The notes under the pieces are model-generated. The model saw nothing but the letters and a program-made list of their open reading frames with translations, was not told the DNA's origin and made no database searches. The position numbers and the translations under genes were made by a program. DNA of 64,000 nt from Minisyncoccota bacterium (GTDB lineage: Bacteria; Patescibacteriota; Minisyncoccia; Phycocordibacterales; Zambryskibacteraceae), in contig DATDVZ010000006.1 of the NCBI GenBank assembly GCA_036517475.1, positions 8,226 through 72,225 of the forward strand, given 5' to 3'. Below are positions 8,792-33,255 of this stretch, in pieces. The first letter of the stretch is position 1, and each line of letters opens with the position of its first letter.

Positions 8792-8848
8792 AATTAGAAA
8801 GAATTAAGAATAATGAATGATACGAATAATAAAACGTACTATAACACT

Positions 8849-13473: not shown

Positions 13474-13899
13474 TCATTGATTTTCTAAAAATTCTAAACA
13501 AACTGAATTAATACAATAATGCTTGCCTGTACTTGAATGCTCATCATCAAATATATGTCCCAGATGAGAGCCGCAGTTCGCGCATGATACTTCAGTGCGG
13601 CGCATTCCGAAACTATTATCTTCCTTAAATTTTACAGCTCCCGGAATTGCATCTGCAAATGACGGCCAGCCTTGTAGCCCCGCTGGCCCTTTTGAAGAAT
13701 CAAGTTTAACATCCGATGAAAAAAGTTCTCTGCCACATACAGCGCATTTATACATTCCCTTCTCATTTTCAAAAACATATTTTCCAGAATACGGCGGCTC
13801 TGTCCCACCAAGACGGGCAACACTATACGCGTCTTCTGAAAGTTTTTCCTTGAACTCATCGTCATTTTTAGGAATTTTTTGTTTTTGGTTATTGTTCAT
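13474..13899 (-). CDS. msrB: Peptide-methionine (R)-S-oxide reductase MsrB
   Basis: Two CxxC zinc pairs, GWPSF, and the catalytic RxEVxCxxCxxHLGHVF-type motif (CANCGSHLGHIF). Confidence 0.85.
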   Translation of the reverse strand: MNNNQKQKIPKNDDEFKEKLSEDAYSVARLGGTEPPYSGKYVFENEKGMYKCAVCGRELFSSDVKLDSSKGPAGLQGWPSFADAIPGAVKFKEDNSFGMRRTEVSCANCGSHLGHIFDDEHSSTGKHYCINSVCLEFLENQ

Positions 13900-13986
13900 T
13901 GTGTATTGTGTATTGTTTCTTATTTCATTATACCAAAACTGTCAAATGAAATTAAAAAATCGCCCTAAAAAAGGACGATCACATAC

Positions 13987-14697
13987 TTACACATCTCTTC
14001 TCATTAAGAATTCCGCACCTTTACCTACTCCCGTATTGATTGGAATACCTTGTGAGCATGGACCATTACGAGCGCATTCCTCCTCTTCCCATATCGGAGC
14101 AGGAAAATTAAGCAATGGAACGAGTTTTGGAACAGACAGATCATTTTCTGTTGCGTGCCCATTAGTCATAATTGTTCCAACTCCGATAACTTCTCCACCT
14201 ATTGATCGCGTTCTCTCAATAACTTTCCTAATCGTGTTTCCGGTGGTAATAATATTGTCTACAATAAGCACTCTTTTGCCGGCAACATGTCTTTCCAATT
14301 CTCTCGGGATTCGTAAATCTTCTGGAACTTTTATCCAATCCTTTAATTTTCTCTCAAGATCCTCAACATTCATTGGCCTGAATTTTTCTGCAAAAACTGC
14401 CAGCACATCCTGCGCGTTGTAATTTTCCAAGTGATAAGCAATCCACTGCGCAATTACTATACCTCCAAGAGCAGGACCCAATACAACTTCTACTCCATCG
14501 TCTCGGAAGTATTTAGCAAGTTCACCGCAGAAATTTGAGGTATGAATTGTGTTTGCATAAAGAGCATGTTTGTCAAAATAGTGAGTACTATGCTGTCCAG
14601 TAGTGTAAACAAAATGTCCTCCAATTTTGATTGCACCAAGGCCCCCCAAAATCCCAAAAGCCGCCTCATTACTTAACGCTCGAAGAACTTTCATCAT
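13987..14697 (-). CDS. pyrE: Orotate phosphoribosyltransferase (type I PRTase)
   Basis: PRPP-binding motif VLIVDNIITTGNT. Adjacent to pyrF. Confidence 0.65.
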   Translation of the reverse strand: MMKVLRALSNEAAFGILGGLGAIKIGGHFVYTTGQHSTHYFDKHALYANTIHTSNFCGELAKYFRDDGVEVVLGPALGGIVIAQWIAYHLENYNAQDVLAVFAEKFRPMNVEDLERKLKDWIKVPEDLRIPRELERHVAGKRVLIVDNIITTGNTIRKVIERTRSIGGEVIGVGTIMTNGHATENDLSVPKLVPLLNFPAPIWEEEECARNGPCSQGIPINTGVGKGAEFLMRRDV

Positions 14698-14770
14698 TTC
14701 TGCTCCAGGTGCAAGTATTGTTCCAAAATCAGATTACCTTTAAATAAAAATAAATCAATGTTTATTCTTA

Positions 14771-14796
14771 AATAAAAAACCACAAAGTTATTGTGG
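14771..14796 (-). terminator. Intrinsic terminator after the small ORF 14809-14988
   Basis: Minus strand: stem ccacaa/ttgtgg followed by UUUUUUAUU. Confidence 0.5.
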
Positions 14797-14808
14797 TCGT
14801 TAGAAACA

Positions 14809-14988
14809 TTAGCCATCGGAATTCTGGATTCTTAAGAATTCCTTTTCAGCAAGCTGTAGTGCCATTGCAAGTTGAGAAGCTGTTATACCAGCTTTTCTTT
14901 CAAGGTGCGTTTGAAATCCTCGTAGTTCTCCAGCCGCCTGCGGCCAGAGCTGGAGAATTTCCTCTCTTGTCCAAATTTTCTGGGCCAT
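14809..14988 (-). CDS. Unannotated small ORF (59 aa), possible HTH DNA-binding protein
   Basis: ATG at 14988 with AGGAGA 6 nt upstream. Translation MAQKIWTREEILQLWPQAAGELRGFQTHLERKAGITASQLAMALQLAEKEFLRIQNSDG. Ends before the 14771-14796 terminator. Below the 60-aa cut-off of the ORF track. Confidence 0.35.
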   Translation of the reverse strand: MAQKIWTREEILQLWPQAAGELRGFQTHLERKAGITASQLAMALQLAEKEFLRIQNSDG

Positions 14989-14997
14989 TCTGTTCTC

Positions 14998-15903
14998 CTA
15001 TCGGTATTGGTTGATTGCGTCGTGAAGTTTTTGGGTCTCGCGGCGAGCTGCTTCAGCGAAATCTTCTCCACTTGATGCGAAAATGATTCCACGAGAGGAG
15101 TTAATTATCATCCCCTGCCCGCGGCTGTTTTTTCCAGCTCTTACGGTTGCCTCAAGATCACCACCCTGAGCGCCAATGCCAGGAATGAGAATCGGCATGT
15201 CGCCAACGATCTGACGAACATCCTGGAGCTCATATGGATAAGTCGCGCCTACTACAAGAGCACAATTATTATTCTTATTCCAGCTGCGAGAAACTTGATA
15301 TGCAATATGAGTATACAGTGGCGCCTGACCCTCAGATGAAGAGACCCAACCGCTAACTATTCCTCCATGATCCAAAGTGTCTGCTTCTTCACCATGAACA
15401 CTAATGAGTAAATCTTGAAGCTCCCCCGCACCCGGATTTGAAGTTCGGCAAAGAACAATAATGCCTTTGTCGGCGCGATCAAGAAATGGCTGGAGTGCTT
15501 CTTGTCCCAGATACGGATGAACAGTGATTGCATCCACCCCTAAATAATCAAATGCCATTTGTACATAACCGGCATTGGTATTACCAATGTCAGCACGCTT
15601 GGCATCGAGAATCACTGGAACGTATGGCGCTTTGCTGTGAATGTCTACTATGGTTCCCCGTAGAGCCTCTATACCTTCTACGCCATGCGCCTCGTAGAAT
15701 GCAATGTTTATCTTGTAGGCACAGACTAAATCTTTCGTTTGAGATACAATGCTAGCATTGAAACCATAAATTGTAGTCCTCACATCGTCATTCATTCGAA
15801 CTGATTTTGGGATCTTACCAAGCTCACTATCAAGTCCCACGCAGACAAATTTTCCTTCATCCCACCTAGCTTGAAGAAGCTCTCGGAAATCGCGTTGAGA
15901 CAT
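14998..15903 (-). CDS. pyrF: Orotidine-5'-phosphate decarboxylase (long, type-2 form)
   Basis: LDAKRADIGNT (DxKxxDIxnT OMPdecase active-site motif). 301 aa, consistent with the type-2 family. Confidence 0.8.
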   Translation of the reverse strand: MSQRDFRELLQARWDEGKFVCVGLDSELGKIPKSVRMNDDVRTTIYGFNASIVSQTKDLVCAYKINIAFYEAHGVEGIEALRGTIVDIHSKAPYVPVILDAKRADIGNTNAGYVQMAFDYLGVDAITVHPYLGQEALQPFLDRADKGIIVLCRTSNPGAGELQDLLISVHGEEADTLDHGGIVSGWVSSSEGQAPLYTHIAYQVSRSWNKNNNCALVVGATYPYELQDVRQIVGDMPILIPGIGAQGGDLEATVRAGKNSRGQGMIINSSRGIIFASSGEDFAEAARRETQKLHDAINQYR

Positions 15904-15949
15904 ATTTCCTCCTGTTAAAGGTCAATTCCAAACTTAGACTACTCGTATA

Positions 15950-15988
15950 AAACAAAAAGTCAAAAGGAAACCTTTTGACTTTTTTGCG
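15950..15988. terminator. Bidirectional hairpin terminator downstream of the small Cys/His ORF
   Basis: 9-bp stem gtcaaaagg/ccttttgac with loop aaa and T-runs on both strands. Confidence 0.55.
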
Positions 15989-16006
15989 GTTCTGCTATGG
16001 AACTAA

Positions 16007-16177
16007 TTAACAGGTACAGTGAACTTCTGCCTGACTACAACTTGCACACTTTGGCATGCAGTGTCTGTGAGAAGCAGGATCTCCATGAACATGACTTTCA
16101 TCATGATTTTCAGATTCAGCTCCGCAAATTGCACATTTATATCCTTTTGCTTCACCCTGACATTTGGCGCATTTCAT
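16007..16177 (-). CDS. Unannotated small Cys/His-rich protein (56 aa), putative metal-binding
   Basis: Verified translation MKCAKCQGEAKGYKCAICGAESENHDESHVHGDPASHRHCMPKCASCSQAEVHCTC. Five CxxC-type pairs plus His. Its ATG (16175-16177) is the last triplet of hairpin element copy 1. A terminator lies downstream. Confidence 0.45.
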   Translation of the reverse strand: MKCAKCQGEAKGYKCAICGAESENHDESHVHGDPASHRHCMPKCASCSQAEVHCTC

Positions 16178-16305
16178 CCCGTTAGAAGCAGGTCGCGGTC
16201 AACGAACTCTGCTTAATAATTTTTTTTGTAATTTTTCGACTTATTTTAAAATTGATTATTATATTTCCCATTTAAACCGTGACCGCGGCTTCTAACGGGA
16301 TTCAT
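16175..16305 (-). repeat. Long-hairpin repeat element, copy 1 (minus orientation). The 3' arm ends on the ATG of the small Cys/His ORF
   Basis: On the minus strand: 5' arm AUGAAUCCCGUUAGAAGCCGCGGUC, an AT-rich core of about 75 nt, 3' arm GACCGCGACCUGCUUCUAACGGGAUG. The arms pair over 21 bp with a 4-nt bulge (ACCU). The 27 nt at 16178-16204 are identical to the reverse complement of the copy 2 3' arm. Confidence 0.75.
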
Positions 16306-16632
16306 AATTTAAAATTATATATTTATAAGACAGACCTCATTATACAAAAATTTTAAATTAGGGACAAATCAGAGTTTGCGATGTTTGAAATATTCAATCT
16401 GACGCAATCTGTTTTGAGCTTCTGCTTTTGTTCTATAAGATCCCATATTGCGACCTTTTTCATAAACTACTTTATAACCACCCTTAATTTTTTTAATCAT
16501 TAGTTTTTAAAATAAACGAAAGATATGAACTATCAGTGAACTCTGTTCTACCATTCGGTCGAGGGTTCCATAAAATTTATTAAAAAATTCTATAAGCGCT
16601 ATTTTGTTTTTTTGTATTAAAATGGGCAAGCT

Positions 16633-17286
16633 TTATGCTTGCCCCCTCCAATCAGTTCTTTTCCAGCCGTGACGCACCAGAACTGCTGGTTTTTTAGGAA
16701 GCTTGCCTTGTTTTGCAAGTTTCTTTTTTTGTCTATCGCGTCTACGCCGGACATCTCTTACCCAAAGCAGTGCCTGAGCCGAGAGCCCGTAATCCCAGCC
16801 ATATCTTTGAATTCTTTTGTTTTCATGAAATTGTCTACGCAGACATGCCCAATATCGTGACTTGATTGCCGGACCTCTTACAATACTCATGAACTGCCTG
16901 CATTCTGGGCAAAGCGGCCTGCTTAACACCCGAAGTTGGGCAACTCTAGCATTCAAAAGGAGATTCCATAGAAAATTTTTAGTTCTCCGAATTTCATGGC
17001 TGAAATAGAGAGGCGCTCCTGTCTCCTTGATCAGAACCCAGCCAGAATCACTCTCCCGAGCCTCTTGCATTTCTTTAAGCCATGTTGTCCAAGCAACAAT
17101 ATCAAGTCCATTTGCGCTAAATATGAATCCCACTTCTCTGCCTCTGCGCGGATGGGGGGCCACAGCTGCAAATCTCACGATGTCTTTCCTTACTTCACTG
17201 CTTTCAAGCGGCCGGAAACCCATTTGCCTGAATTTTTTTTCAAGCCAGCTGAATCCGGCAGCATCAGGCAAAACTTGTCTAGGCAA
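16633..17286 (-). CDS. Hypothetical basic Trp/Arg-rich protein (217 aa) with a CxxC...C zinc-ribbon-like motif and a poly-basic tail; possible nuclease-like
   Basis: CPECRQF...YWAC and the C-terminal RRRRDRQKKKLAKQGK tail. GC content is noticeably higher than surrounding genes. No secure family assignment. Confidence 0.45.
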   Translation of the reverse strand: MPRQVLPDAAGFSWLEKKFRQMGFRPLESSEVRKDIVRFAAVAPHPRRGREVGFIFSANGLDIVAWTTWLKEMQEARESDSGWVLIKETGAPLYFSHEIRRTKNFLWNLLLNARVAQLRVLSRPLCPECRQFMSIVRGPAIKSRYWACLRRQFHENKRIQRYGWDYGLSAQALLWVRDVRRRRDRQKKKLAKQGKLPKKPAVLVRHGWKRTDWRGQA

Positions 17287-17354
17287 CTTAGAGCTCCTAA
17301 GGAACTTTCTACTTATTTTATAGATTATTTAAAGCAATAAATCAATCCTCAAAA

Positions 17355-17657
17355 CTATTTTTTTTCACGTAAGATAATTCTAGAAATTACAATTACAATA
17401 AGGGTAAGAACTATAGCGTATATGAATTTTGCAGTTATACCTTTACCCTCTGCCGGATAAATATAATCAATGAAAGCCTTAATTGCATCATTCCATGAAA
17501 GAGCAACAATGAGTCCTATGCCTGTCATAATATATCCGCGGACTTGTGATTGGAGTTCGCCTCTCATTTCTTTTTCTTTTTCAATTGCTTTATCAAAAAT
17601 TGGTGGCATGTAAACAATTCTAAAATTAAAATCCAAAAAAGTAAAAAGCTCCAGCAA
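17355..17657 (-). CDS. Small membrane protein (the probable start is the internal MPPIF at 17609)
   Basis: Two hydrophobic helices, about 84-100 aa. Confidence 0.45.
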   Translation of the reverse strand: MLELFTFLDFNFRIVYMPPIFDKAIEKEKEMRGELQSQVRGYIMTGIGLIVALSWNDAIKAFIDYIYPAEGKGITAKFIYAIVLTLIVIVISRIILREKK

Positions 17658-17667
17658 TGCCGGAGCT

Positions 17668-19464
17668 TTAATTTAAATACGAATCTTCTCTGTGTTCGTG
17701 ATACTGACGCCACAATTCCTGAAACTCTGGACAGTTGGTAAGTAATTCCTGAAGCGACCCTGAAGCAATAATCCTACCTTCACGGAACATATAAATAGTC
17801 CGGAATAACGGCAGTAGGTGTAGCCTGTGGACCGAAGAGATAATGGTCTTGTTCCGAAATTCGCGAAAGATGTTTCGGTAGACTCTCATCTCTGTCGCCG
17901 TATCGAGGCTCGATGTAGGCTCATCAAGAAGCACTATATCCTTATCGTGACAAGCAAGAAGCCCTCGAGCTAGCGCCAGACGCTGTTGCTGGCCCCCAGA
18001 GAGGTTAACTCCTTTTTCCTTAATTGATGAATGAAACTTTTTTGGCAATGCTTCCGCAACATCAGTGAAGCATGCCATATCGGTGAAATGGCGCACGAAA
18101 TCGATTTCATGATCTGCTCCCAAAGTAATATTTTCCAATATCGTGGTAGCAAAAATTTCCGGATTCTGAGGTATTAGCGCAATTGCTCTACTGATCCCCT
18201 TAAAACCATCAGTAATAATTTGACCGTCTACACTGAGACTAATAGTTCGTGGATGATAGATATCTCTAACGATGTTGAATAATGTAGATTTACCGCCTCC
18301 CGATTCACCGACGAGAGCTATCCGAGCGCCGCGTTCCATCAACATTGATACGTTCTCGAGGTGGAGATTGTTTCTTCCATCGTTTTGATACGAGAAGTTA
18401 AGGCCTCCTACCTCCAAACGCTGCCAATTCTCGGGCAATACATGGTTAGTAAAGTTTTCTGTCCTAAAGTCCTTGGTGAGTTTCTCGGAATTTGTGATCA
18501 GTGTTTTACGTTTGAGTACTTCACTATACATTTGTGTGAACTGGAAAAAAATCTCACTAATACGATCAAGGTATTTAATGAGTAGAAATACACTTCCTAT
18601 CAAGACACCTTGAGCTGTACCGATGTTTTGCCAGAAATACACTGACATAACTACGATTACCATCACCGAGCAGCAAATGCTTGTAAGAAACCATTTCGTT
18701 TCACCCAAGCGTTGATTGTGCTTAAAGAGTTCAAACGGCTTCTCAACTTTCTTCATAATCGCACTGAAGACCAGTTTCTCAACACGCAGAATAATTACAG
18801 TCGTAATATTACTTACGGCGTCAAACACGCTCTCCGAGATCTGATTCTCTGCACGATTAAGCTCTTCGTATTGGCTGACCATTACTTTGTCGAAGCGAAT
18901 TGTTATCCATGCTGAGATGAGAATCATCACTAGAACAATAAATGCTGCCGGCGGAGAAAAGTATGCAAGTATAAAGTAACTTACGACAAGTTGGACGATA
19001 GCGTAAATTATCTCGAAAGAGTCTCCAGAGAATGAGAATATCGCATTTGTCCCCTTTTCAATTTTGTCAATCGTATCCCCAGAATGATGATCCACATGCC
19101 ACTCCATCGGGAGTGTCATAACACCCTTCAGAAGAAATCGTCTGTAATTGAGCCGCACCTTGAAAGCATTGTAGCGTTCAATACAGCGCGCAGGTCCATG
19201 GAAAGACCAGAAGACAAGCTCAAAAAGAAGAGTCAACGAGAGGAGTCCGATCAGTACTCGAATGTTGCCAGTTGTTACTCCCTCTTTTTGGATTATGTTC
19301 ATAATCTTGGCTAATGCCAATGGGGGGCCAATAAGGTTGACGGTATTGGCCACAATAAACATGATCCAATACCACACCACCTTGCCCCGATTTCCCTCTG
19401 AATACCGCCAAGTTTTGCCAAACAGATAGAGAAGCGGATTGCGCCTCTCGCTTTGAGCCTTCAT
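17668..19464 (-). CDS. ABC transporter, fused permease/ATP-binding exporter (MsbA/MdlB type)
   Basis: Six-TM N-terminal half, then Walker A GESGGGKST, signature LSGGQQQRLALARGLL and Walker B ILLDEPTSSLD. Confidence 0.85.
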   Translation of the reverse strand: MKAQSERRNPLLYLFGKTWRYSEGNRGKVVWYWIMFIVANTVNLIGPPLALAKIMNIIQKEGVTTGNIRVLIGLLSLTLLFELVFWSFHGPARCIERYNAFKVRLNYRRFLLKGVMTLPMEWHVDHHSGDTIDKIEKGTNAIFSFSGDSFEIIYAIVQLVVSYFILAYFSPPAAFIVLVMILISAWITIRFDKVMVSQYEELNRAENQISESVFDAVSNITTVIILRVEKLVFSAIMKKVEKPFELFKHNQRLGETKWFLTSICCSVMVIVVMSVYFWQNIGTAQGVLIGSVFLLIKYLDRISEIFFQFTQMYSEVLKRKTLITNSEKLTKDFRTENFTNHVLPENWQRLEVGGLNFSYQNDGRNNLHLENVSMLMERGARIALVGESGGGKSTLFNIVRDIYHPRTISLSVDGQIITDGFKGISRAIALIPQNPEIFATTILENITLGADHEIDFVRHFTDMACFTDVAEALPKKFHSSIKEKGVNLSGGQQQRLALARGLLACHDKDIVLLDEPTSSLDTATEMRVYRNIFREFRNKTIISSVHRLHLLPLFRTIYMFREGRIIASGSLQELLTNCPEFQELWRQYHEHREDSYLN

Positions 19465-19856
19465 CAGTTTCTCCTTGTCTGTGAGTTTATGAGTTTGTGT
19501 GAAAGAACATTAAAGAACTATACAGCGTGCCTCGGCACGCTGTTTCAAAAACTCGATTAAGTAGAGATAATCAAATACTTAAAACAAAATGCCACTCTGA
19601 TATATAAGATACACCAAGAGTAACCGCTCTGCTGGGCGCGGTTTTGAATATATTTTTTTGTGACATGATTAGATTCATGTATTGAAACGATACCATGTAT
19701 TAGAAAATATTGCAAGTACTGTAAATCCCATATCAAAATTTTTGAAATTTTAAAAAATATAGTGTTATATTATTGAAATTAATGGAGGGGTGGCCCAAAA
19801 AACTTTACTGTCGTAAAGTTAATGGGTAAACAGAGTGATCTCGTGATAATTGCGGA

Positions 19857-19946
19857 GGAGGAGTGCGAGAGTGGTTGAATCGGCGTCCCTGGAAAGGACG
19901 TATACCGGAAACGGTATCAAGGGTTCGAATCCCTTCTCCTCCGCCA
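19857..19946 (+). tRNA. tRNA-Ser (anticodon GGA) with long variable arm and encoded CCA
   Basis: Manually folded. Acceptor GGAGGAG/CUCCUCC, D-stem CGA/UCG (3 bp, Ser-type), anticodon stem CGUCC/GGACG with loop CUGGAAA, variable hairpin AUACCG-GAAA-CGGUAU, T arm AAGGG-UUCGAAU-CCCUU, discriminator G, CCA. Confidence 0.8.
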
Positions 19947-20095
19947 TGTTCGGGAGAATCCATGCCCGTTCATCCCGCTAAGCGGGATATTTCGGGTCTC
20001 ACCCCCCAGCATGTTTCGGGACGAATCTTTCACCCTCCGCCATGAACATGAGAATCGTTGCCCGTTCATTTCGTATCGCGAAATGTTTCAGGTTT
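19938..20095 (+). repeat. Tandem duplication of the tRNA-Ser 3' end plus downstream flank (two roughly 95-bp units, about 70% identical); att-like remnant
   Basis: Unit 1 at 19938-20030 starts cctccgccatgttcgggagaatccatgcccgttcat. Unit 2 at 20034-20095 starts cctccgccatgaacatgagaatcgttgcccgttcat. A third cctccgccatg lies at 23048-23058, downstream of the 942-aa gene. Confidence 0.6.
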
Positions 20096-20190
20096 TACTA
20101 TTGCAAGCTAGAAATTTACAAATGCGGATAGTTTATCTCGTTAAAAATTAATAATGTTAAAATATTGCATATATCTAACTAATTCTATTT

Positions 20191-23019
20191 ATGGAAAGTG
20201 GATATTTTTATTCAAAATCAACCGGACTCTATGTAGCGCGAGGCCCACTGCGAATTGACGCCAGAGTTATTGCGGCAGCATCTCAGTGCGGAGTTAAACT
20301 TCATTGGGATGATGAGGGAAGAATTAATAATCTTGACTTCCTAGAGTCTGTACAATTACTCAAAAGTTTTGGCGCAACAATGATGAGTGTAAAAGAGTAC
20401 TGGCTTATAATGGCCGAAGTCCGAGCCGCTAATGAAGTTGAACTCTTAACTCAATTGCAATCTGACCGTTATGCCGAATGGCTTAACAGTGTTTTTGAAA
20501 ATAAAGAGTCAGTTATTGAGGATATTGAGGTAATAAATAAAGAAGGAAAAAATACTTATAGCGGAAAAAGAAAATGGGTTCAAATGCCTTACGGACATCC
20601 CGGCTGGTTCAATACAGATGAAATTGATTTAGATACCGGACTTCCGAAAAGAGTGGAGTTAAACAGGGAAAAACACGCTACAACATGGAAATATTGGTCG
20701 TTTTGCGATTACGATTATGTAGCGGCAGGCGTCAGAGGATGGGTTACTTCTGTCGGCAAACCTTCTTTGGACTTAGGCATTCCGATAGACGCCCGCCAGC
20801 CGAATTTATTAATAAGAGAATGCCGGAAAGCGCCGCTTGAAGAGAGTATTGATCCCGATATAACAAAAAAGGCAGAGATATTGATCTCGCGATTTAAAAA
20901 TATCGTAGAGACCGGAGAGTATGAATCTTTTTATAAGTCGCGTTCAGAATTTTTGCTTTTTATAAAGAATTACGGATATTTATTTTCCAGATCACAGGAA
21001 ACTAAAATATATAAAATAAGGGAGAAACTGGTTGAAATTGCCGGGCTAATCACACTCCTTGCCAGAAAAGAGGATAAAAGTGAAGAGTTTTTGGAAATAC
21101 AGGACATTGCCAGAAAAAGCTGGGGGATTGATTCAGATATTACTTATGAGGATTTTGCCACATTTGTAATGACGAGCAGGCAGAGGTTGGAGGAGGCCTT
21201 GTGCAAGACTTATCCGATTGTCTTTGTTATCGGACATAAAAATCCTGATACGGACGCGGTAGTAAGTTGTCTTTTTGAAGCATATAGGAATCATATCGCT
21301 GACGGAAAAAGAGTTGTCTTTGTGCCGGTTGTAGAGGGATATAAAATGCCATTAGAAATTTCAAGACTTCTGGGCGAGAAGTTGACCGCGAGAATAGTTT
21401 TTACCGGAGAAAAACTCTATCAAAATATTTTGCATTTAGGTCAGGCCAGATGGATAATGACTGACCATAGTTTGAATCCATTGATACAAAAATTTGTTAT
21501 TTCAATAGTTGATCACCATATCCCCTCGGCTATTGCTCTGAGACAAGAGATACCGAAAACAATTGAATTTATTGGCTCAACGTCAGCTTTGATTGTGGAG
21601 CGTATCTATGGCCTTGGCCTCACTATCCCAGGCGATTTAGCCAGAATACTCTACGGGGCAACACTAATGGACACGGAGAACCGCTCCCCATATAAAATGA
21701 CACAAAGGGACGTCTTAATCATGGATGATCTGAAAAATATCGCGGAGGTTCAAAGCGACGGAGAATTTTTCCACGATTTGATGAGCAAATTACTTAATAG
21801 TGACGACGCTGAAGATTTGTTTGCGCGTGATTACAAAGAAGATTGGCAATTTTTCGGCTTCGCCGTCGCAAAAGTCAAACACTTTTTTGACAGCAGAGGG
21901 TCTGTTCTTAAACCAGAACTTGCGGATAATCTTGTCAAACTTGCTCATAGAAATAATGCGGACAAGAACTTGCCTCTGACGCTCATTAAACTTGTTGATT
22001 ATCTTGATGATAACAGCACTATAAACCGCGAGAGAGTATATCTCATATTCAATGAAAACATTTTCAGAGAATTCAATGAAACGATGTTTACTTTACTCAA
22101 AACTATCATTCACAGCACTTTCAAAGGAAAGGAATCCATGTCAGTAACGAGGGAGTATATTGAGTTTTGGGGAGTAGGCGATCAGTTGTCACGAAAGCGC
22201 GTTGTCCCGCTTTTTGATCCTGTGGCTACGGCTTTCAACAGATTTTTCTTCTCACCCGCGTCCGGCTTATACGCAAAGAGAGAGTTTTTAAAAAATACCA
22301 AAAGAGTAAGAGATGCTGCGCTATCACTTGGGATCAAACTATCATCGGATAACCAGGAAAGAATAAACCATGTTACCTATGGAGAGGCTATTAGACTTCT
22401 TGATGAGCTCGGATTTGAAGCGATGAGTCTGCCGGAATATTGGAATGTCTACAATGACGCAAAAAGTGTTTCCGACAACCAGATGCTCGGCCAACTCAAA
22501 AGTGACGGGTTTGTTGAGTTTCTTCACACAATAATTGAGGAGAATAATTCACTGACCCACAAGCCTGAAATTATTCGCGGCAAAACAAGTTTTGTTTATG
22601 AAGACTCTGTTGTTGAAATTGAATACAATTATCAAGGGGAGAAAAGCGAGGTCAAAATCCCAGAGGGCAAACCGGGCCTTTTTTCTCCAAGCGATGTTTA
22701 CCCGGAGACAGGACTACCTGCAAATGTAAAGTCGCCAAACATTTATAATGACCCGACACTTTGGCGTTACTGGTCGCCAGACGCGTCAATAAATGTTGCA
22801 ACTCGGGGGTATATATTTCTGCTCGGTCAACCAGCACTGGATCTAAAAGTGCATTTGTCAGAGGCTTTTCAGTGTCTTGGGATAAGACCGTGCTGTAAAA
22901 AAGTTGAGTTGCCAGAAGTAGAAATATCCGCTAACAGTAGCGGGGTATCGCTAACTATTTGGGAGGAGGGAGAAAAATTTAGTATCCGTGAGGCTGATCT
23001 TTTTAAAAACCTTGGTTAA
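20191..23019 (+). CDS. Large multidomain protein (942 aa): a central DHH-family phosphoesterase domain flanked by two copies of an uncharacterised roughly 200-aa domain
   Basis: DHH motifs I (GHKNPDTDAVVS), III (IVDHH) and IV (GSTSALIV). The N-terminal region (about 10-210) and the C-terminal region (about 690-900) are clearly homologous (GHPGWFNTDEIDLDTGLPKRVE vs GKPGLFSPSDVYPETGLPANVK; TWKYWS vs LWRYWS; PSLDLGI vs PALDLKV). Confidence 0.7.
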   Translation: MESGYFYSKSTGLYVARGPLRIDARVIAAASQCGVKLHWDDEGRINNLDFLESVQLLKSFGATMMSVKEYWLIMAEVRAANEVELLTQLQSDRYAEWLNSVFENKESVIEDIEVINKEGKNTYSGKRKWVQMPYGHPGWFNTDEIDLDTGLPKRVELNREKHATTWKYWSFCDYDYVAAGVRGWVTSVGKPSLDLGIPIDARQPNLLIRECRKAPLEESIDPDITKKAEILISRFKNIVETGEYESFYKSRSEFLLFIKNYGYLFSRSQETKIYKIREKLVEIAGLITLLARKEDKSEEFLEIQDIARKSWGIDSDITYEDFATFVMTSRQRLEEALCKTYPIVFVIGHKNPDTDAVVSCLFEAYRNHIADGKRVVFVPVVEGYKMPLEISRLLGEKLTARIVFTGEKLYQNILHLGQARWIMTDHSLNPLIQKFVISIVDHHIPSAIALRQEIPKTIEFIGSTSALIVERIYGLGLTIPGDLARILYGATLMDTENRSPYKMTQRDVLIMDDLKNIAEVQSDGEFFHDLMSKLLNSDDAEDLFARDYKEDWQFFGFAVAKVKHFFDSRGSVLKPELADNLVKLAHRNNADKNLPLTLIKLVDYLDDNSTINRERVYLIFNENIFREFNETMFTLLKTIIHSTFKGKESMSVTREYIEFWGVGDQLSRKRVVPLFDPVATAFNRFFFSPASGLYAKREFLKNTKRVRDAALSLGIKLSSDNQERINHVTYGEAIRLLDELGFEAMSLPEYWNVYNDAKSVSDNQMLGQLKSDGFVEFLHTIIEENNSLTHKPEIIRGKTSFVYEDSVVEIEYNYQGEKSEVKIPEGKPGLFSPSDVYPETGLPANVKSPNIYNDPTLWRYWSPDASINVATRGYIFLLGQPALDLKVHLSEAFQCLGIRPCCKKVELPEVEISANSSGVSLTIWEEGEKFSIREADLFKNLG

Positions 23020-23121
23020 GTATTTTTAATTAAATATTTCGGGTCCCCCTCCGCCATGTTTCCTGTCTCACACTTCTCCACAAAAAATGTGGAAGTAACC
23101 AGAATACTTTATTAAAAACTT

Positions 23122-23478
23122 ATGACTTATAAACAAAAAGCTGGTCTTGTAGCATGGATGCATCTTTTCTATATTTTGATTGTAATAGTCAGCCTGCCTC
23201 TGCTTTTTTTAATTTCTTGGTGGTATAAAGTTGCTCTTGTGCTCGCAATTTCAACTTTTTTGTCATGGATCCCTTTTAAGGGGTATTGCTGGATAACTAG
23301 GCTGGAAAATAAATTCCTCAAACAATATAATCCAGATTCTTCATACAATAATGGTTTTATAGAACATTATTCAAAAAAGTTTTTTAATACAAATTTTTCA
23401 CCAGTTACACTTATAGTAATACTTGATTCGTATTTACTTTCTCTTTTCATATTATCCTTACTTAATTTTCTGTATTAG
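23122..23478 (+). CDS. Hypothetical small membrane protein
   Basis: 118 aa, 3-4 predicted TM helices. Confidence 0.45.
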   Translation: MTYKQKAGLVAWMHLFYILIVIVSLPLLFLISWWYKVALVLAISTFLSWIPFKGYCWITRLENKFLKQYNPDSSYNNGFIEHYSKKFFNTNFSPVTLIVILDSYLLSLFILSLLNFLY

Positions 23479-23489
23479 CTCATAAAATT

Positions 23490-24857
23490 TTAGACCTGAT
23501 TGTTTGCATTTTTGTTTCCCCCATCAAGTGCCGCCCTTGCGACTTCTTTATACCTCTGTTCAAGCCCACCATCATCAGCAATGCTTTTTAAAGTTTGATT
23601 ACTTACATTTCGGTTGCGAGCAATGATTCTTAATAAATAACCATAACCTCTTTCTTTTGCTTGGCCTGTGCCAAAATTATGTAAAGTTTTGGGACTACAA
23701 AGAGGACTGCAAACTATTGAGCCTATTGTTGCCCAATCAGTTGAGTTTTTATATTTTTTTTCAAAATTTTCAAATAATTCTTTTTGTTTAGACTCACTTG
23801 CACCCCAAATTAAAGCGATGTTAATCAATGGGTCATCTGAAATAAGTTTTGATCTGACAGATTTAGAAGTATTACTATCATAGGCACTTATAAACTTATT
23901 TATCCAATTACCACCCTTAACTTGGTTTGTACGTTCAATAAAATCCAACCACACAAGTTCTATAATTTTTTTTATTGCATCTCTGTGCATTTCAAAATTT
24001 TCTCTTGTTACCAACGGGCTTGGGTATCCTATTTTAGTTAACCTGTGTAATGTTTTATCATCTAAAAAAGTTAACCCATTATCAGAAGTTCCGTCGTTTA
24101 TCTTTAAGACATCAGATCTAAAATTTATATAAAAATTTATCGCTTTTATAACTCTTTCTAATTCTTTTTTTGTAATTATTCCCTTACCTTCTAATTTTTT
24201 TAAACCAGTTTTAACCCGCGGTTCATATTTAATAGAATCATTATTCCTATCAAGCATTTTAATATATCTCTCATACCAAGATACAAACAACAAATCTCTG
24301 GTCCCCCCATGACAGTATTTTATATTTAGGGCATTATCCCGTACCCTTTGTCTAAAATACTGGTTCAAATAGAATCTGTTAAATATAAAATTTTTTTGTT
24401 CTCTCTCAATAGAGTTGAATTTAATTTTCTGCAACTCAAACTTTTTATGTACATTTTTATTGCCAATAATAAATCTTGTTTCTAAGATCTGATTTCCTTC
24501 AATTAGACTCTTCTTGAGGTACGTCTCTACTTCGTCAAAAGTGCCCCATGGAGGCAAATCTACTTTAGAAAAATTGAACTTATCTAACTTCCTTGTAAGT
24601 AACTCTCTAAATTTTTCTGATTCAACTGATCTTCTCTTCTCAACTAAAAAAATATCTGCATCGGATTCTCTTCCAACCAATTCGATTCTACCTGGTGAAC
24701 CATACGTATAAAGAGCGAGACCTGATGGATTTTGCTTGTTAAAAATCTCTTTTGCAGTTGTCTTGTAGGCATTTTTAACTAGGATATCAAATTTTTGAGT
24801 ATCTTTGAGTGCCCTTTCTAGACCATTAAACTTGTTGAGATTAATACTTTTTTTCAT
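23490..24857 (-). CDS. GlnD/DUF294-type nucleotidyltransferase (pol-beta superfamily) with a C-terminal helical substrate-binding-like region
   Basis: YGSPGRIELVGRESDADIFLV matches the GS-x9-13-SDxD nucleotidyltransferase motif of the GlnD/GlnE/DUF294 group. 455 aa. Its start is separated by one base from the stop of the kinase gene upstream (operon). Confidence 0.55.
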   Translation of the reverse strand: MKKSINLNKFNGLERALKDTQKFDILVKNAYKTTAKEIFNKQNPSGLALYTYGSPGRIELVGRESDADIFLVEKRRSVESEKFRELLTRKLDKFNFSKVDLPPWGTFDEVETYLKKSLIEGNQILETRFIIGNKNVHKKFELQKIKFNSIEREQKNFIFNRFYLNQYFRQRVRDNALNIKYCHGGTRDLLFVSWYERYIKMLDRNNDSIKYEPRVKTGLKKLEGKGIITKKELERVIKAINFYINFRSDVLKINDGTSDNGLTFLDDKTLHRLTKIGYPSPLVTRENFEMHRDAIKKIIELVWLDFIERTNQVKGGNWINKFISAYDSNTSKSVRSKLISDDPLINIALIWGASESKQKELFENFEKKYKNSTDWATIGSIVCSPLCSPKTLHNFGTGQAKERGYGYLLRIIARNRNVSNQTLKSIADDGGLEQRYKEVARAALDGGNKNANNQV

Positions 24858-24858
24858 T

Positions 24859-25500
24859 CTAAAGTCCTAGTTTGTTTTTGGCAATCTCAAACATCTCGTC
24901 TTCAGTACCCTCGTGGTCAATTAGATAAAGTTCGGGATGTTTTTGCGCTAACTCAATATATAATTTTCTTCGTCTCTCGATTTTCGCCAAAATTTCATCT
25001 ATCGTATAATTATTATAATATTTTTTATCATCTCTAACTTTTGCTCTACAAAGAACGGTTTCTGCCGAGCACAATAAGATTACTCCAAAATTCGGCTTTA
25101 TCGCTCCACTAGCTAAGTTAATATTAATAATATTATCAACAGAAAAATTTTTATTTGCCTGATATATTGCTGAGGTGTAAAAACATCTATCAAAAATTAA
25201 ATAATCTATCTTACCGATTAAAGGTAATAAATATTTTTCATGAACCTCACCTCTTGCTTTGGCTACATCTAATATAAATTCTTTAGAAAATTGTTCGTTA
25301 CGCCCCTCATTACTCCATTTGGAAATTATTTGCTTAAAAGACTCATAAGCTTTCTCATAAACAATCAGGTTAGTTTTATTTTTTTTATTAAGGAATTCTG
25401 AAATTTTGGCGACCAGAGTAGTTTTACCAGTGCTAGTCATTCCCTCAATACATATGACTTTTGTCATCATAATTGGACAGATACTATCAAAAAAGTTCAA
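24859..25500 (-). CDS. P-loop NMP kinase, thymidylate-kinase-like
   Basis: Walker A ICIEGMTSTGKTT and DRCFYTSAIYQ (the TMK DRY..S.AYQ motif). Co-operonic with the nucleotidyltransferase. Confidence 0.55.
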   Translation of the reverse strand: MNFFDSICPIMMTKVICIEGMTSTGKTTLVAKISEFLNKKNKTNLIVYEKAYESFKQIISKWSNEGRNEQFSKEFILDVAKARGEVHEKYLLPLIGKIDYLIFDRCFYTSAIYQANKNFSVDNIININLASGAIKPNFGVILLCSAETVLCRAKVRDDKKYYNNYTIDEILAKIERRRKLYIELAQKHPELYLIDHEGTEDEMFEIAKNKLGL

Positions 25501-25537
25501 ATAGAAAAGAGAGCGCTTATGCTATATTTTAAAGACT

Positions 25538-26125
25538 GTGATTAAAAAAATTGAAAATGTTGCTAAAAAATATTACAGCAAACTACCCTATCATAACTGG
25601 AATCATGCAAAAAAGGTCAGGAGTAATGCATTGGAATTAGTAGAAAGATGCAGAAAGTATAAAGTTCCTGTCGATTCTGAAGTCGTTGAAATAGCAGCTT
25701 TATTTCATGACGCGGGTTATGCTGACGTAAAAGAAAACAAGGAAGAACACAGTGCAAAAATCGCTAGAAAAGCGCTCAAAAAATATAAATATCCGGATTC
25801 AAAAATCAAAGCTGTAATAAATACAATTTTAGCAACCAAAAAAAACGGCCAATTAAAAACAAATGAACAAAAAATAATGCGCGCAGCAGATTTAAGATCT
25901 TTTACTTCAAGTTTTAAGGAATTTAAAAAAGCCAGTGATAAGATCCGTAGAGAATATAAAATACTTTATGGTAATAGTGATTTTCCGCTAAAGGGCTGGA
26001 CTGAGCTTGTCGACGCATATCTAAAACCGAAAATTAAACTCACTCCGGAATATTCTTCTGATAAATTTCACACCAAAGCCAAAAATAATATTAAAAGAAT
26101 TTTAAGAGAATATAAAAAGACCTGA
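25538..26125 (+). CDS. HD-domain metal-dependent phosphohydrolase
   Basis: HNWNH...LFHDAGY (H...HD motif). 195 aa. Divergent from the kinase gene with a 37-bp gap. Confidence 0.7.
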   Translation: MIKKIENVAKKYYSKLPYHNWNHAKKVRSNALELVERCRKYKVPVDSEVVEIAALFHDAGYADVKENKEEHSAKIARKALKKYKYPDSKIKAVINTILATKKNGQLKTNEQKIMRAADLRSFTSSFKEFKKASDKIRREYKILYGNSDFPLKGWTELVDAYLKPKIKLTPEYSSDKFHTKAKNNIKRILREYKKT

Positions 26126-26128
26126 TAA

Positions 26129-26722
26129 TTATTCAAGTTCAGAATATTTCACAAGTCTATTTCTTCCGGTTTCTTTTGCTCTGTACAATGCCTTATCAGC
26201 GCAGGCAACTATACCCTGGCAATTCATACCCGAAGTTGCTGTGGCTACCCCGATACTGGCCGTTACAGCTAAGTCAGACGAACTAAACTTTAAATTTTGA
26301 ATCTCCTGAAGCAATTCTTGCCCCTTCTTTGCTGCATCATCTTCATTGGCACCCAAGAGAGAAACTACAATCTCTTCTCCTCCCCATCTAGCTGCTGTGT
26401 CTCCACCTCGTAGGGAAATCATTATTGTCTCTGATACTTTTTTTAAAATCTCGTCTCCAACAGCATGTCCGAATTGATCATTAATTTTTTTAAAATGATC
26501 TAAATCAAAAAATAAAATGCTTAAATTTCTGAAACCAAACCACTCTTTTCGATTACTTTTATCTAAATTTGCAATAGCATCTAAATAAGTATCTATCTCC
26601 TCTTCAAAAAATTTTCGAGTTTTTAGTCCGGTGAGAGAATCGTGAATTAAATCTTTTTCCAGATTTTTAACTTGCTTTTCAAGTTCAGTAATTTTATTTT
26701 TTAATTCATCAACGTCAGACAT
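26129..26722 (-). CDS. GGDEF-domain diguanylate cyclase with an N-terminal coiled coil
   Basis: DSLTGLKTR, DLDHFKKINDQFGH, RWGGEEI (GGEEF active-site variant) and the KALYRAK motifs. 197 aa. Confidence 0.85.
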   Translation of the reverse strand: MSDVDELKNKITELEKQVKNLEKDLIHDSLTGLKTRKFFEEEIDTYLDAIANLDKSNRKEWFGFRNLSILFFDLDHFKKINDQFGHAVGDEILKKVSETIMISLRGGDTAARWGGEEIVVSLLGANEDDAAKKGQELLQEIQNLKFSSSDLAVTASIGVATATSGMNCQGIVACADKALYRAKETGRNRLVKYSELE

Positions 26723-26769: not shown

Positions 26770-26791
26770 CATCTACGCCATGGCGTAGATG
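26770..26791. promoter_or_regulatory. 22-bp perfect palindrome catctacgccatggcgtagatg (downstream copy), 3' of the Cas2-like gene
   Basis: Perfect inverted repeat with a central CCATGG. Identical to the copy at 27219-27240. Lies 25 nt after the stop of the 26817-27221 gene and about 48 nt before the GGDEF start. Confidence 0.6.
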
Positions 26792-26816: not shown

Positions 26817-27221
26817 TTACTTTATTTTCAATTTATAAGTCTTGAATGATTTTCCTAAACCAATTCTTTTCACATAATCAGTAAAATCTAGCGGCAAAGA
26901 TGGACCAACCCAGACACTCTTCTGAATCATGACAAAATCAAAGCTCTTAAGTTGACGGCGAAACCAATCTCGCTCTTTTTTCATTGTGTGAGGAACATCG
27001 TAAATAACTAATAAGTTTTTTGTAGAACCCTTCACATTATAATTTGTAAAAGAACGCAGATAATGCCGTCTTGAAATACTCTCGAGAACTCGCTTCCTTT
27101 TTTTAACCAAACTGAAAATATTTGGATCAGGTAGGTTAAAATTACCAAGGGGCACACCTTTGTAAGATTTTTTCCCTTTTTTCATAAATTTATTCTGTCC
27201 ATAAAATAATACTACTACCAT
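26817..27221 (-). CDS. Solo Cas2/VapD-fold endoribonuclease-like protein with a roughly 60-aa basic N-terminal extension
   Basis: LLVIYDVPHTMKKERDWFRRQLKSFDFVMIQKSVWV aligns well with the type II Cas2 core (e.g. [37 protein letters not shown]). No cas1 and no CRISPR array in the window. The start codon is the terminal triplet of the upstream palindrome. Confidence 0.45.
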   Translation of the reverse strand: MVVVLFYGQNKFMKKGKKSYKGVPLGNFNLPDPNIFSLVKKRKRVLESISRRHYLRSFTNYNVKGSTKNLLVIYDVPHTMKKERDWFRRQLKSFDFVMIQKSVWVGPSLPLDFTDYVKRIGLGKSFKTYKLKIK

Positions 27222-27240
27222 CTACGCCATGGCGTAGATG
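27219..27240. promoter_or_regulatory. 22-bp perfect palindrome catctacgccatggcgtagatg (upstream copy), overlapping the start codon of the Cas2-like gene
   Basis: Identical to 26770-26791. On the minus strand it is preceded by a TATAAT-like box about 7 nt upstream. Confidence 0.6.
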
Positions 27241-28313: not shown

Positions 28314-29201
28314 TCAAGCCATTATTGCGGACCTGTCCCCTATCTGTTGCCATCTTACTTTTTCGAGCTTGGGTTTAAGTAAATTAACAACCTTTTCTAT
28401 GCTATTAAATTCCTTCTCTAAAATATCTAAACCTCTAAATATATCGTTAACACTCCACAAGCCTTCCAAAAAGAAAATGATTTCATTACCTACTATCTCT
28501 ATATCGCTTACTATCGACAATCTTAAAATTTCTTCCAGGACATCCGGTGTAAAAACCTGTAGTGCCTCAATATGATAACCACGGGGTATGCTTAATGTAA
28601 ACTTTTTTTCAAATTCTGTAGGCAAAGACAGTTTTTCGCCAATATTAAGCTCATATTTATTATTTTTATAATTAAGATATAAATGGGGAAAATTGCTTGC
28701 AAAGCTTATTGAGTAGATTAAATAATTATATGTTCTTTTGTTCTTTCCATAATTTTTTTCAAAACTGTAAAAGAAAAGTCTGATTGTTTCCCCACTGTTT
28801 TTTGTAAACGTAATTTTGTTTTTTGCAGTCCTACTATGTCCCTGCTTAAACATAGCAGCATTTTCATTTTCAAAATTAAAAAATATTTTTGGGTCATAAG
28901 TGCCGTGGTTTTCATTTGCTATAATTTTCATCAAATTTTCGCCACCCTCTCTCCAAGGGCGATTATATCCGAAAAAATATATAACCACAGGAAAAATAAA
29001 AAACAATGAAAAGGCTGTGAACGGCGTTTGTTCTGCTAGGTCTTTAAGGAAATCTATATTTGCTAAAAAAGCTAATAAAATCAAAATTGCTACTAAAAAA
29101 TACCAGACTTTCAGATACGGTAAATACTTTCTTTTAAATTTTTCTTTTCTCCTGATATTCTCTTCACGAATTTCGCTAATTTTTGCACTATTGAAATTCA
29201 T
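28314..29201 (-). CDS. Hypothetical membrane protein (295 aa), lemA/htpX neighbourhood
   Basis: N-terminal TM helices. Conserved position between htpX and lemA. Confidence 0.45.
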   Translation of the reverse strand: MNFNSAKISEIREENIRRKEKFKRKYLPYLKVWYFLVAILILLAFLANIDFLKDLAEQTPFTAFSLFFIFPVVIYFFGYNRPWREGGENLMKIIANENHGTYDPKIFFNFENENAAMFKQGHSRTAKNKITFTKNSGETIRLFFYSFEKNYGKNKRTYNYLIYSISFASNFPHLYLNYKNNKYELNIGEKLSLPTEFEKKFTLSIPRGYHIEALQVFTPDVLEEILRLSIVSDIEIVGNEIIFFLEGLWSVNDIFRGLDILEKEFNSIEKVVNLLKPKLEKVRWQQIGDRSAIMA

Positions 29202-31736: not shown

Positions 31737-32048
31737 TTATTTTAATAAAGCGATTATTTCGCTTTCTCGTACAATTACATATTCTTCACCCTTGTAACTT
31801 ACATTATCTCCCCATTGATATAAAACTTTGTCCCCGACTTTTAATTTGACTGGTATAAGTTTGCCACCCTCAAAACGTCCCTCACCTACCGCTATTACCT
31901 CTCCTTGTTTTGTGCTTTTGTCTTCCTTTACGTTTTCTGGAATATAAATTCCTGAAGTACTTTTTTCTTTTTCTTTAATCTCCTTAAGAATCACTTTATC
32001 ACCCAAAGGTTTAAGACCGATAGATTTCTTTTTATTTTCCTTAGCCAT
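31737..32048 (-). CDS. groS: Co-chaperonin GroES (Cpn10)
   Basis: LKPLGDKVILK...GIYIP...GEVIAVG pattern. Immediately upstream of groEL. Confidence 0.9.
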   Translation of the reverse strand: MAKENKKKSIGLKPLGDKVILKEIKEKEKSTSGIYIPENVKEDKSTKQGEVIAVGEGRFEGGKLIPVKLKVGDKVLYQWGDNVSYKGEEYVIVRESEIIALLK

Positions 32049-32117
32049 ATTTATAAAAGTTATTTTATGAGGGTTATATTATAGAGAGAGCCCACTTGCT
32101 GTCAAATTTTAATTTTT

Positions 32118-32153
32118 ACAAAACAAAAAGGGCCCACAACTTCGTGAGCCCTT
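32118..32153 (-). terminator. Intrinsic terminator downstream of the GC-rich gene
   Basis: Minus strand: stem aagggc/gccctt followed by UUUUUGUUUUG. Confidence 0.5.
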
Positions 32154-32173
32154 GTTACTACCACCTTCGTCGA

Positions 32174-32797: not shown

Positions 32798-32979
32798 GGG
32801 CCCCTTGCCTTTCCTCCCCGTGGGGAAATATTGCGTTATGCTTCGAAAACTTCAGAAAGCTACTATAGAACTGTTACAGTAGCATTATAGCATACTCAAT
32901 TTATATGTCAAGCAGAAGAACATAAAATATAGAACATGAAACATAGAACATCAAATAAATGGCTTAAAATAGCCATAAT

Positions 32980-33255
32980 TTGCGGAATGGTTGCAATATA
33001 TTTTTATTAAAATATAATGTTGCCATGAGTATATCTGCAGTTCTGCCCTATTTTCAGATACTCCTTTCAGTTCTCCTAATTGGAGGCATTCTTTTACAGA
33101 GATCTGAAGCATCACTTGGCTCGGCATTCGGAGGAAGTGACCTTGGAGGAGCTAATTTTGAAAGAAGAGGAGCTGAAAAATTTATCTTCAGGCTTACGAT
33201 AATAGTAGGAATACTTTTTGCTATATCTGCGCTGGCAGGTTTATTTTTGCAGTAG
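32980..33255 (+). CDS. secG: Preprotein translocase subunit SecG (the probable start is MSISAV at 33016)
   Basis: Two TM helices with the SecG-like LLQ...GSAFGGS loop. Confidence 0.5.
   Translation: MRNGCNIFLLKYNVAMSISAVLPYFQILLSVLLIGGILLQRSEASLGSAFGGSDLGGANFERRGAEKFIFRLTIIVGILFAISALAGLFLQ

Follow-up and report, generated by a model that had tools for sequence, protein, structure and literature searches.

The 64,000-nt stretch of the genome of a Minisyncoccota bacterium, an ultra-small member of the CPR (candidate phyla radiation), analysed here (assembly GCA_036517475.1, contig DATDVZ010000006.1, forward-strand positions 8,226 to 72,225; called the window below, with positions counted from its first letter) carries a tRNA-Ser(GGA) gene whose 3' end recurs downstream of it, on both sides of a gene encoding a 942-aa DHH-family protein. 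The reading we prefer, with moderate confidence, is that recombination has struck a tRNA hot spot repeatedly and left these repeats as decayed scars, and that two of them, copies B and C, bracket the event that placed the DHH gene. It is firmly established that the interval between the GGDEF and SelR genes in which the tRNA and the DHH gene lie interrupts a conserved backbone as a lineage-specific insertion, and that the DHH gene has left the NDK context of its relatives. A tRNA recombination hot spot is supported by the evidence below, while this evidence falls short of a discrete 3-kb island carried in by an integrase.

Repeats of the tRNA-Ser(GGA) 3' end and the interval around it

The tRNA gene was called by both ARAGORN and Rfam (53.6 bits in the latter) and encodes its CCA. 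An 11-mer, CCTCCGCCATG, comprises the last 5 nt of the acceptor 3' strand, the discriminator G, the CCA and the following TG. An earlier note on this DNA had placed it at the tRNA end, again 96 bp on and once more after the DHH gene, and a search of the whole 64-kb window returned precisely these three exact copies and no further copy with one mismatch permitted (Table 1). By an estimate from base composition ~0.008 exact copies are expected per window by chance, and a shuffle control gave a mean of 0.42 with none of 100 shuffles containing three copies. The first two copies, A and B, belong to a gapless 77-nt duplicate (19926-20002 versus 20022-20098, with 96-nt spacing), which has the 70% identity given in that note and begins in the T-loop (CGAATC). 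With this reach, copy B is a piece of the tRNA itself and more than a shared motif.

Copy C lies 29 nt past the stop codon of the 942-aa open reading frame (ORF), at the junction where the GC content drops from ~0.41 to ~0.30. Its context, ATATTTCGGGTC-CCCCTCCGCCATG-TTTCCTGTCTCAC, aligns with 19987-20020 (ATATTTCGGGTCTCA-CCCCCCAGCATG-TTTCGGG), with similarity extending over ATATTTCGGGTC...CCCCYCCRSCATGTTTC, and its flanks add ~20 matching positions to the 11-mer itself (12/12 of ATATTTCGGGTC upstream and 11/13 of TTTCNNGTCTCAC downstream). This extended similarity points to a fourth, degenerate copy, A', with the core CCCCCAGCATG. Three exact 11-mers together with the flank similarity are far beyond chance. 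The arm shared by units A and B consists of GAGAATC..TGCCCGTTCA followed by a hairpin, and as read from the sequence the two hairpins are kept in the same register by two compensatory C-G to T-A changes, a pattern more in keeping with two arms that diverged while remaining functional than with a local duplication decaying neutrally. Repeats of this kind are missing at the three other tRNAs of the window. Across seven independent assemblies of this population the repeat regions hardly differ (0-2 mismatches upstream of the DHH gene and none downstream), so that they are no assembly artefact.

In order to place the locus in its genomic context we compared it with loci of related genomes (numbered with L below), the informative ones coming from GGDEF homologues and from scanning metagenomes for the tRNA 3' end. 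The backbone common to L162, L163, L164 and L165 reads (RNase J, SBP) GroES-GroEL-LemA-M48-GGDEF-[tRNA-Ser(GGA)]-(SelR)-RRM-DUF192-RNR/GAPDH, and from ~38 kb to ~5 kb the window follows the order of L163 except between GGDEF (26129) and SelR (13899). This interval measures 159 nt in L162, 1.0 kb in L163 and 12.2 kb in the window. In L162 it holds the tRNA alone, on the same strand as GGDEF, and thus represents an empty site. The tRNA has the same orientation in L164 and L165, where unrelated genes follow it. In the sister species L102/L106 (tRNA 87/90 identical, LemA 80%, M48 74%) GGDEF and the tRNA are followed after ~30 nt by a 1013-aa PglX/type-IIG-like methyltransferase-restriction gene (L102:156-3197). 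In the window, by Pfam, the block contains the DHH gene, DUF2784, a GlnD-like NTase, a dTMP-kinase-like gene and HD on the 3' side of the inverted tRNA, and an ABC transporter, DUF5654, two hypotheticals, an OMP decarboxylase and a PRTase on its 5' side. The empty-site comparison is limited by distance, the best identities being 70% for GGDEF, 65% for DHH and 76% for the ABC transporter. The matches listed in the scan with the tRNA 3' 26-mer were mostly unrelated bacteria, plus the sister-species loci L102 and L106 and the L087 group. A genome scan with the adjacent ABC transporter gave 30 loci (best 76% identity), none of them near tRNA-Ser(GGA) or other window genes and hence of no use for synteny.

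The tRNA of L163 shares the inverted orientation seen in the window, and the gene 3' of it is GC-rich and encodes a lipoprotein-like product of 174 aa. Past this tRNA by 14 nt, after the trailer TGGGCGGGAGAA, lies a 38-nt stretch with 92% identity (E 2e-9) to positions 36-73 of the L162-type tRNA-Ser, spanning the anticodon loop to the T-loop, and it is followed by a 34-nt palindromic hairpin and then by GGGTCTCACCCTCCGC, which is the motif of window copies A' (GGGTCTCACCCCCCAGC) and B (TTTCACCCTCCGCC). The stretch is the 3' half of a different tRNA-Ser allele in displaced position, which is how integration into a tRNA gene classically shows itself.

The bases that directly follow the CCA in the window, TGTTCGGGAGAA, are similar to those of L087 (TGCGCGGGAAA) and of L163. 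In both of these relatives the leader and trailer, CCCGCSCATGGC and GCCATGSGCGGG, are perfectly complementary and extend the acceptor stem by 12 bp, from which it follows that the first dozen bases of the trailer at copy A are native and under selection. The other copies are copies of the tRNA end with a native-type trailer.

Several further observations concern the tRNA slot in its own right. A 19-bp inverted repeat surrounds the tRNA in L087 (680-800) and L163 (11316-11430), with a degenerate counterpart in the window (19839-19957, 76% over 25 nt), and could serve as a helix for processing or have to do with recombination. On the minus strand of L163 (11235-11320) the hairpin CCCGCCCGACTGAACAATTCAGTCGTTCGGGCGGG splits the displaced tRNA half between the T-loop and a T-stem/acceptor remnant. 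Two very different tRNA-Ser(GGA) sequences occupy the one backbone slot, one in L162, L164 and L165 and the other in the window, L106 and L163, which suggests whole-gene replacement or movement of the tRNA; the second type is also found at an unrelated locus, in a gyrB / UvrD-like neighbourhood, in L041/L087. In L164 GGDEF and the tRNA-Ser are separated by a gene for an 86-aa GIY-YIG nuclease (8655-8915), and NUDIX genes are similarly placed in L161 and L165, so that the slot upstream of the tRNA is variable too. A copy of CTCCGCCA located 3097 nt upstream of the tRNA in L041, L087 and L150 was discarded as a chance 8/9-mer match at the end of a UvrD-like gene.

Table 1 Features of the tRNA-Ser(GGA) locus and domains of the DHH-family protein (window positions unless given as residues)
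Feature	Position	Strand	Description
Lineage-specific 12.2-kb block	13900-26128		Between SelR (13477-13899, -) and GGDEF (26129-26722, -); from collinearity with L162-L165
Promoter-like site	19742-19771	+	TTGAAA-18-TATATT with TG; upstream of tRNA
tRNA-Ser(GGA)	19857-19946	+	CCA encoded; inverted relative to the backbone orientation of L106, L162, L164, L165
Copy A of 11-mer	19938-19948	+	Acceptor 3' strand, G, CCA, TG
Unit A trailer	19947-20002	+	TGTTCGGGAGAA (common to relatives), hairpin, tail ATATTTCGGGTCTCAC
Unit A hairpin	19972-19988	+	ATCCCGC-TAA-GCGGGAT
Copy A'	20003-20013	+	Degenerate core CCCCCAGCATG, then trailer-like TTTCGGGA; homologous to GGGTCTCACCCTCCGC of L163
Unit B	20022-20098	+	Pseudo tRNA 3' fragment from T-loop CGAATCTTTCACCCTCCGCCA (16/21 to tRNA), trailer, hairpin
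Unit B, exact 11-mer (copy B)	20034-20044	+	
Unit B, hairpin	20067-20085	+	
DHH-family protein	20191-23019	+	942 aa
N domain	aa 1-~215		
Helical linker	aa ~222-340		
Core	aa ~341-683		Family-II-PPase-like, DHH + DHHA2
C domain	aa ~684-905		Homologous to N domain, with small beta tail
Unit C	23034-23071	+	ATATTTCGGGTC, exact 11-mer, trailer-like TTTCCTGTCTCAC
Unit C, exact 11-mer (copy C)	23048-23058	+	
Hairpin after copy C	23072-23096	+	ACTTC-T-CCACA / TGTGG-AAGT; read from sequence

Integration at the tRNA weighed against other origins

In this clade the tRNA-Ser(GGA) is a fixed part of the backbone between GGDEF and SelR, with repeated gain of DNA on its 3' side, and in the window at least three copies of the tRNA 3' end with its trailer have arisen (A' at 20003, B and C). 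Under the reading we favour, repeated crossovers in the tRNA 3' end left them as attL-type and attR-type duplications, followed by loss of most of the incoming DNA. Units B and C would then be the junctions of the event that brought the DHH gene, the 3.0 kb between them having formed one unit. The single gene in it has been parted from NDK and set here. We infer that an integrase-type enzyme made the duplications; the recombinase would be gone by now or act in trans. The locus shows no variation across assemblies and behaves like ordinary chromosomal DNA, in which the DHH gene may be read through from the tRNA promoter. No promoter-like site was seen between the tRNA and the DHH gene, which makes their co-transcription possible. 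The hairpin that follows copy C could be the terminator of the DHH gene or a former tRNA trailer.

The earlier note had proposed an integrase-mediated insertion of 3 kb with a single gene into the tRNA 3' end. What stands of this is a variable, insertion-prone site with an empty counterpart and varied cargo, while an integrase-borne island is unproven. The size has to be revised, as the lineage-specific segment extends over 12.2 kb (13.9-26.1 kb) and flanks an inverted tRNA on either side. An empty tRNA-Ser site without the segment at 20.0-23.06 kb had been named as the check; the empty site of L162, with its tRNA alone, lacks the whole block and not specifically that segment.

A number of observations weigh against the scar reading. 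As the note had stated for the integrase, no integrase or recombinase domain was found by Pfam in the 12.2-kb block, nor in any ORF of 13.9-29.2 kb. The exact repeat has only 11 nt, 9 of which come from the tRNA, and the first ~12 nt past the CCA (TG..CGGGAGAA) are conserved in relatives, so that copy A is not element-derived there. The block lies partly 5' of the tRNA and the tRNA is inverted, and simple 3'-end integration explains neither. At the boundaries of the block and of the putative inversion we found no inverted or direct repeats, only AT-rich 8-mers, and the block ends contained no degenerate 11-mers. Scans of viral contigs with the tRNA 3' 21-mer and the arm motif returned nothing but one chance coding match, no phage or plasmid contig with the att-like sequence was found and the seven assemblies show no structural variation. 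The DHH gene itself is a conserved family gene, not usual island cargo, and its composition (GC 0.408, GC3 0.387) is typical of the backbone (window GC 0.389). The genes after copy C, from DUF2784 to HD, have a GC content of 0.30-0.32; since the backbone gene GGDEF is also low in GC3, composition is not decisive on foreign origin. The nearest relatives, at ~60-80% protein identity, are too distant for the exact 3.1-kb site to be inspected. In known islands the ends are marked by a regenerated tRNA and a displaced fragment (PMC4383910). The locus has an intact tRNA at one end and a displaced 3' fragment in direct orientation, short in comparison with typical fragments, and lacks an integrase inside, an atypical composition of the DHH gene and evidence of mobility.

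Several of these points are also at home in an account without any site-specific recombinase, in which the trailer was duplicated in place by slippage or unequal crossing-over and the DHH gene entered or split the array by illegitimate or short-homology recombination during an inversion-bearing rearrangement. Besides the missing integrase, the lack of a mobile element with this att and the native composition of the DHH gene, this account draws on the tandem arrangement of copies A, A' and B within 160 nt, on the similar unit tails that bound the DHH segment (AAATGTTTCAGGTTTTAC at 20081 and AAATATTTCGGGTCCCCC at 23033) and on the wider rearrangement of the locus, with its inversion and its genes 5' of the tRNA. 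On the other side TRF found no tandem array at the repeats, the copies being too diverged for it, and the hairpins of units A and B persist through compensatory changes despite an identity of only 70%, which is unexpected under neutral decay. The displaced half in L163 derives from a different tRNA allele and so needs incoming DNA with tRNA sequence, not slippage, and different cargo is found exactly 3' of the tRNA in several lineages. We regard duplication in place as rather unlikely, though it is the main rival of the scar reading.

The repeated segments might also be functional RNA, a tRNA 3' end-like segment with its TTTCGGG trailer and hairpin serving under selection as the processing or termination module of a tRNA-DHH co-transcript. 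The perfect 12-nt leader-trailer complementarity in relatives implies selection on the CCATG-CGGGA trailer, the compensatory changes described above have preserved the hairpins that follow A and B and the stretch between the tRNA and the DHH gene is without a promoter-like site, all of which would suit such a role. Against it, RNA folds of 19830-20130 (z -1.8) and 22940-23125 (z +0.4) are not clearly better than those of shuffles, Rfam finds nothing but tRNAs, copy C is without a partner 5' strand with which a tRNA-like stem could form, no other 3' end or tRNA of the window has the motif and the sister species L106 with its near-identical tRNA has neither the trailer nor the repeats. Taken together this makes a selected RNA module improbable.

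A more speculative possibility, to which we give slightly less credence still, is that the tRNA-Ser(GGA) with its leader-trailer inverted repeat is in this clade a site of gene capture and inversion, flipping between two orientations in a fixed slot and served by a recombinase that is encoded elsewhere or has been lost, with single genes or short sets taken up on the 3' side and bounded by copies of the tRNA 3' end. If true, this would be a tRNA-centred analogue of the integron platform in genomes with few mobile elements. Finally, that the third 11-mer is a coincidence beside a genuine local duplication, with the DHH gene brought next to the tRNA by ordinary genome shuffling, is very hard to credit, for although CPR genomes retain little synteny at this divergence and chance C-rich partial matches to the tRNA end do exist (e.g. 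15 nt, 93%, at 26369, E 2.3), this exact copy, of a kind expected only ~0.008 times, falls just past the stop codon of the gene that comes first after the tRNA and its flanks match as well.

The DHH-family protein and other features of the window

A 'Candidatus Paceibacterota' metagenome-assembled genome encodes a protein with 100% identity to the 942-aa protein, which belongs to a widespread, highly conserved family restricted to CPR bacteria and DPANN archaea. A DHH core flanked by two homologous domains had been described in the earlier note, and this layout is borne out by an internal duplication of residues 5-213 and ~745-905 (32% identity, E 6e-37), the two homologous copies being ~210 aa each. 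The architecture had also been called undescribed. It is real and a literature search for it in CPR/DPANN returned nothing relevant; as a widespread CPR/DPANN family, however, it is not a peculiarity of island cargo.

The core matches family II pyrophosphatases (PPases) in sequence (PDB 9m0m, 6ll7 and 1k23), and Foldseek aligned ~350 columns over DHH and DHHA2 with 1k20, 1wpp and 1i74 at a TM score of 0.74-0.75 of the target. Across 75 family members the core motifs GH-x-NPD-x-D, DHH, D-T-E-N and S-R-K are invariant. These include the metal-binding residues H349, N351, P352, D353, D355 and D441-H442-H443, aligned to PDB 9m0m, and D425, D494-T495-E496, K549, Q665, L666 and S667-R668-K669 are invariant likewise. 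The protein has a DHH domain with the metal-binding motifs and a DHHA2-type second domain with the substrate-binding S-R-K. Pfam DHH was matched at E 1.5e-5, marginally under its gathering score, and the NCBIfam PPase equivalog NF003877 at 58.2 bits, far under the cut-off of 283. Among related DHH enzymes the substrate is nanoRNA, pAp, c-di-AMP or polyphosphate in place of pyrophosphate.

AlphaFold modelled the full-length protein with a pLDDT of 91.9 and a pTM of 0.86 and the N domain with a pLDDT of 93. Structure prediction on the duplicated domain, which the earlier note had recommended, gave a confident model without a confident fold match, and with a lead towards the C-type-lectin/FGE fold. 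The flanking domain has no Pfam match and no convincing match among solved structures (best PDB E >= 0.09, TM <= 0.47). The best of these weak PDB matches are all of the C-type-lectin/FGE fold, namely EgtB, FGE and variable proteins of diversity-generating retroelements (DGRs), and the matches among viral structures are tail-fibre tips (TMq ~0.5, one of them below E 1e-3). Among 1.84 billion representative proteins the domain occurs in 110 clusters, nearly all with the same two-copy architecture, and a few very long ORFs join it to uridine-kinase/CYTH or pseudouridine-synthase/TPR modules. Both copies conserve E96/E776, K167/R859, R182/R872, D194/D884, R209/R899 and the tryptophan of WxYWS (W169, invariant in the N copy). 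That the two copies keep the same residues suggests a putative ligand site in each of them.

NDK lies directly upstream of the DHH gene in all five relatives examined (CPR proteins 56-65% identical to the DHH protein and one DPANN protein 41% identical), often overlapping it or with a spacing of 3 nt, and some family members are fused to NDK. The evidence for this context comes from loci L008, L009, L010, L166 and L167 and from proteins P0088, P0092, P0105, P0111, P0241 and P0245. NDK was not found in the 64-kb window. At the DPANN locus two NDK genes flank the DHH family gene and a UPRTase precedes it, and in L009 a PRK+CYTH gene follows the DHH family gene, a combination found fused to the module in the 2845-aa ORF P0245. 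A nucleotide-salvage cluster moving together with the DHH gene was considered and rejected, as the DPANN locus L166 shows no homology beyond DHH.

Other features were noted in and beyond the block. The low-GC (0.30-0.32) stretch at 23122-26125 consists of DUF2784, a 455-aa GlnD-like NTase, a dTMP-kinase/AAA_28-like gene and HD(IG), all of them lineage-specific, lies beside the stand-alone GGDEF cyclase and could be a nucleotide-signalling or defence-type module. A perfect 22-bp palindrome, CATCTACGCCATGGCGTAGATG, is present twice (26770-26791 and 27219-27240, with 0 expected) around a 134-aa Cas2-like/PaaX_M gene (26817-27221, -) which is absent between GGDEF and M48 in L106, L162, L163 and L164. 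One palindrome copy overlaps the start codon of this gene, and the pair marks either a single-gene cassette or autoregulatory operators. A 295-aa membrane-like ORF with a weak DUF2207_C match (28314-29201) separates M48 and LemA, and as these two genes are adjacent in L106, L162, L163 and L164 it represents another small lineage-specific insertion in the backbone. Lastly, the GC content rises to 0.53 (window mean 0.39) at 32001-33000, over a 207-aa charged hypothetical (32174-32797, -) upstream of GroES, for which there was no Pfam family and no Rfam match.

Relation to known elements and enzymes

tRNA genes are known integration hot spots, and the scar itself therefore adds little that is new; the genomic feature is a further example of the well-known tRNA-associated integration scars with a variable region. 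What it does document, through the empty site and the differing cargoes of relatives, is that the small symbiont-type genomes of CPR bacteria are shaped by tRNA hot spots too and that a metabolic gene normally bound to an operon can be moved into one. The locus resembles tRNA-targeting islands (Islander, PMC4383910) in its intact tRNA followed by displaced 3'-end copies in direct orientation, in its lineage-variable cargo on the 3' side, in the empty site of a relative and in the displaced half of another allele in a second relative. It differs from them in being without an integrase, in an exact repeat of 11 nt and in a cargo of one family-conserved metabolic gene of native composition, as well as in the lineage-specific DNA that also lies 5' of an inverted tRNA and in the absence of any sign of excision in seven assemblies. 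With tandem tDNA islands, such as the SGI1 arrays (PMC2297512) and those at the Klebsiella asn tDNA (PMC4891358), it shares several att-like copies in the same orientation downstream of one tRNA and homologous arms of neighbouring units (A versus B at 70%, and the ATATTTCGGGTC tail before A' and C). In the window, however, all of the 'islands' but one are reduced to 30-100 nt and no element of the family was found.

The protein family is a more worthwhile lead than the genomic scar. With its PPase-type core, its two orphan domain copies and its tight link to NDK, this ~940-aa protein is a candidate for a part in the nucleotide or phosphate economy of host-dependent cells. For the flanking domains the C-type-lectin/FGE-sulfatase fold provides the best and thematically consistent matches of the model (the EgtB C-domain, FGE, DGR variable proteins and phage tail-fibre tips), although these are weak and come without sequence similarity, so that they constitute a lead to the fold and not family membership. 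The core is like that of the Mn-dependent family II PPases, including their CBS-domain variants (PMC11210485; bioRxiv 10.1101/2020.04.07.028951), in both sequence and structure and keeps their metal and substrate motifs. Unlike these enzymes the window protein is three times longer, with two extra ~210-aa domains and a helical linker of ~120 aa, is limited to CPR/DPANN and is linked or fused to NDK, its PPase activity being putative.

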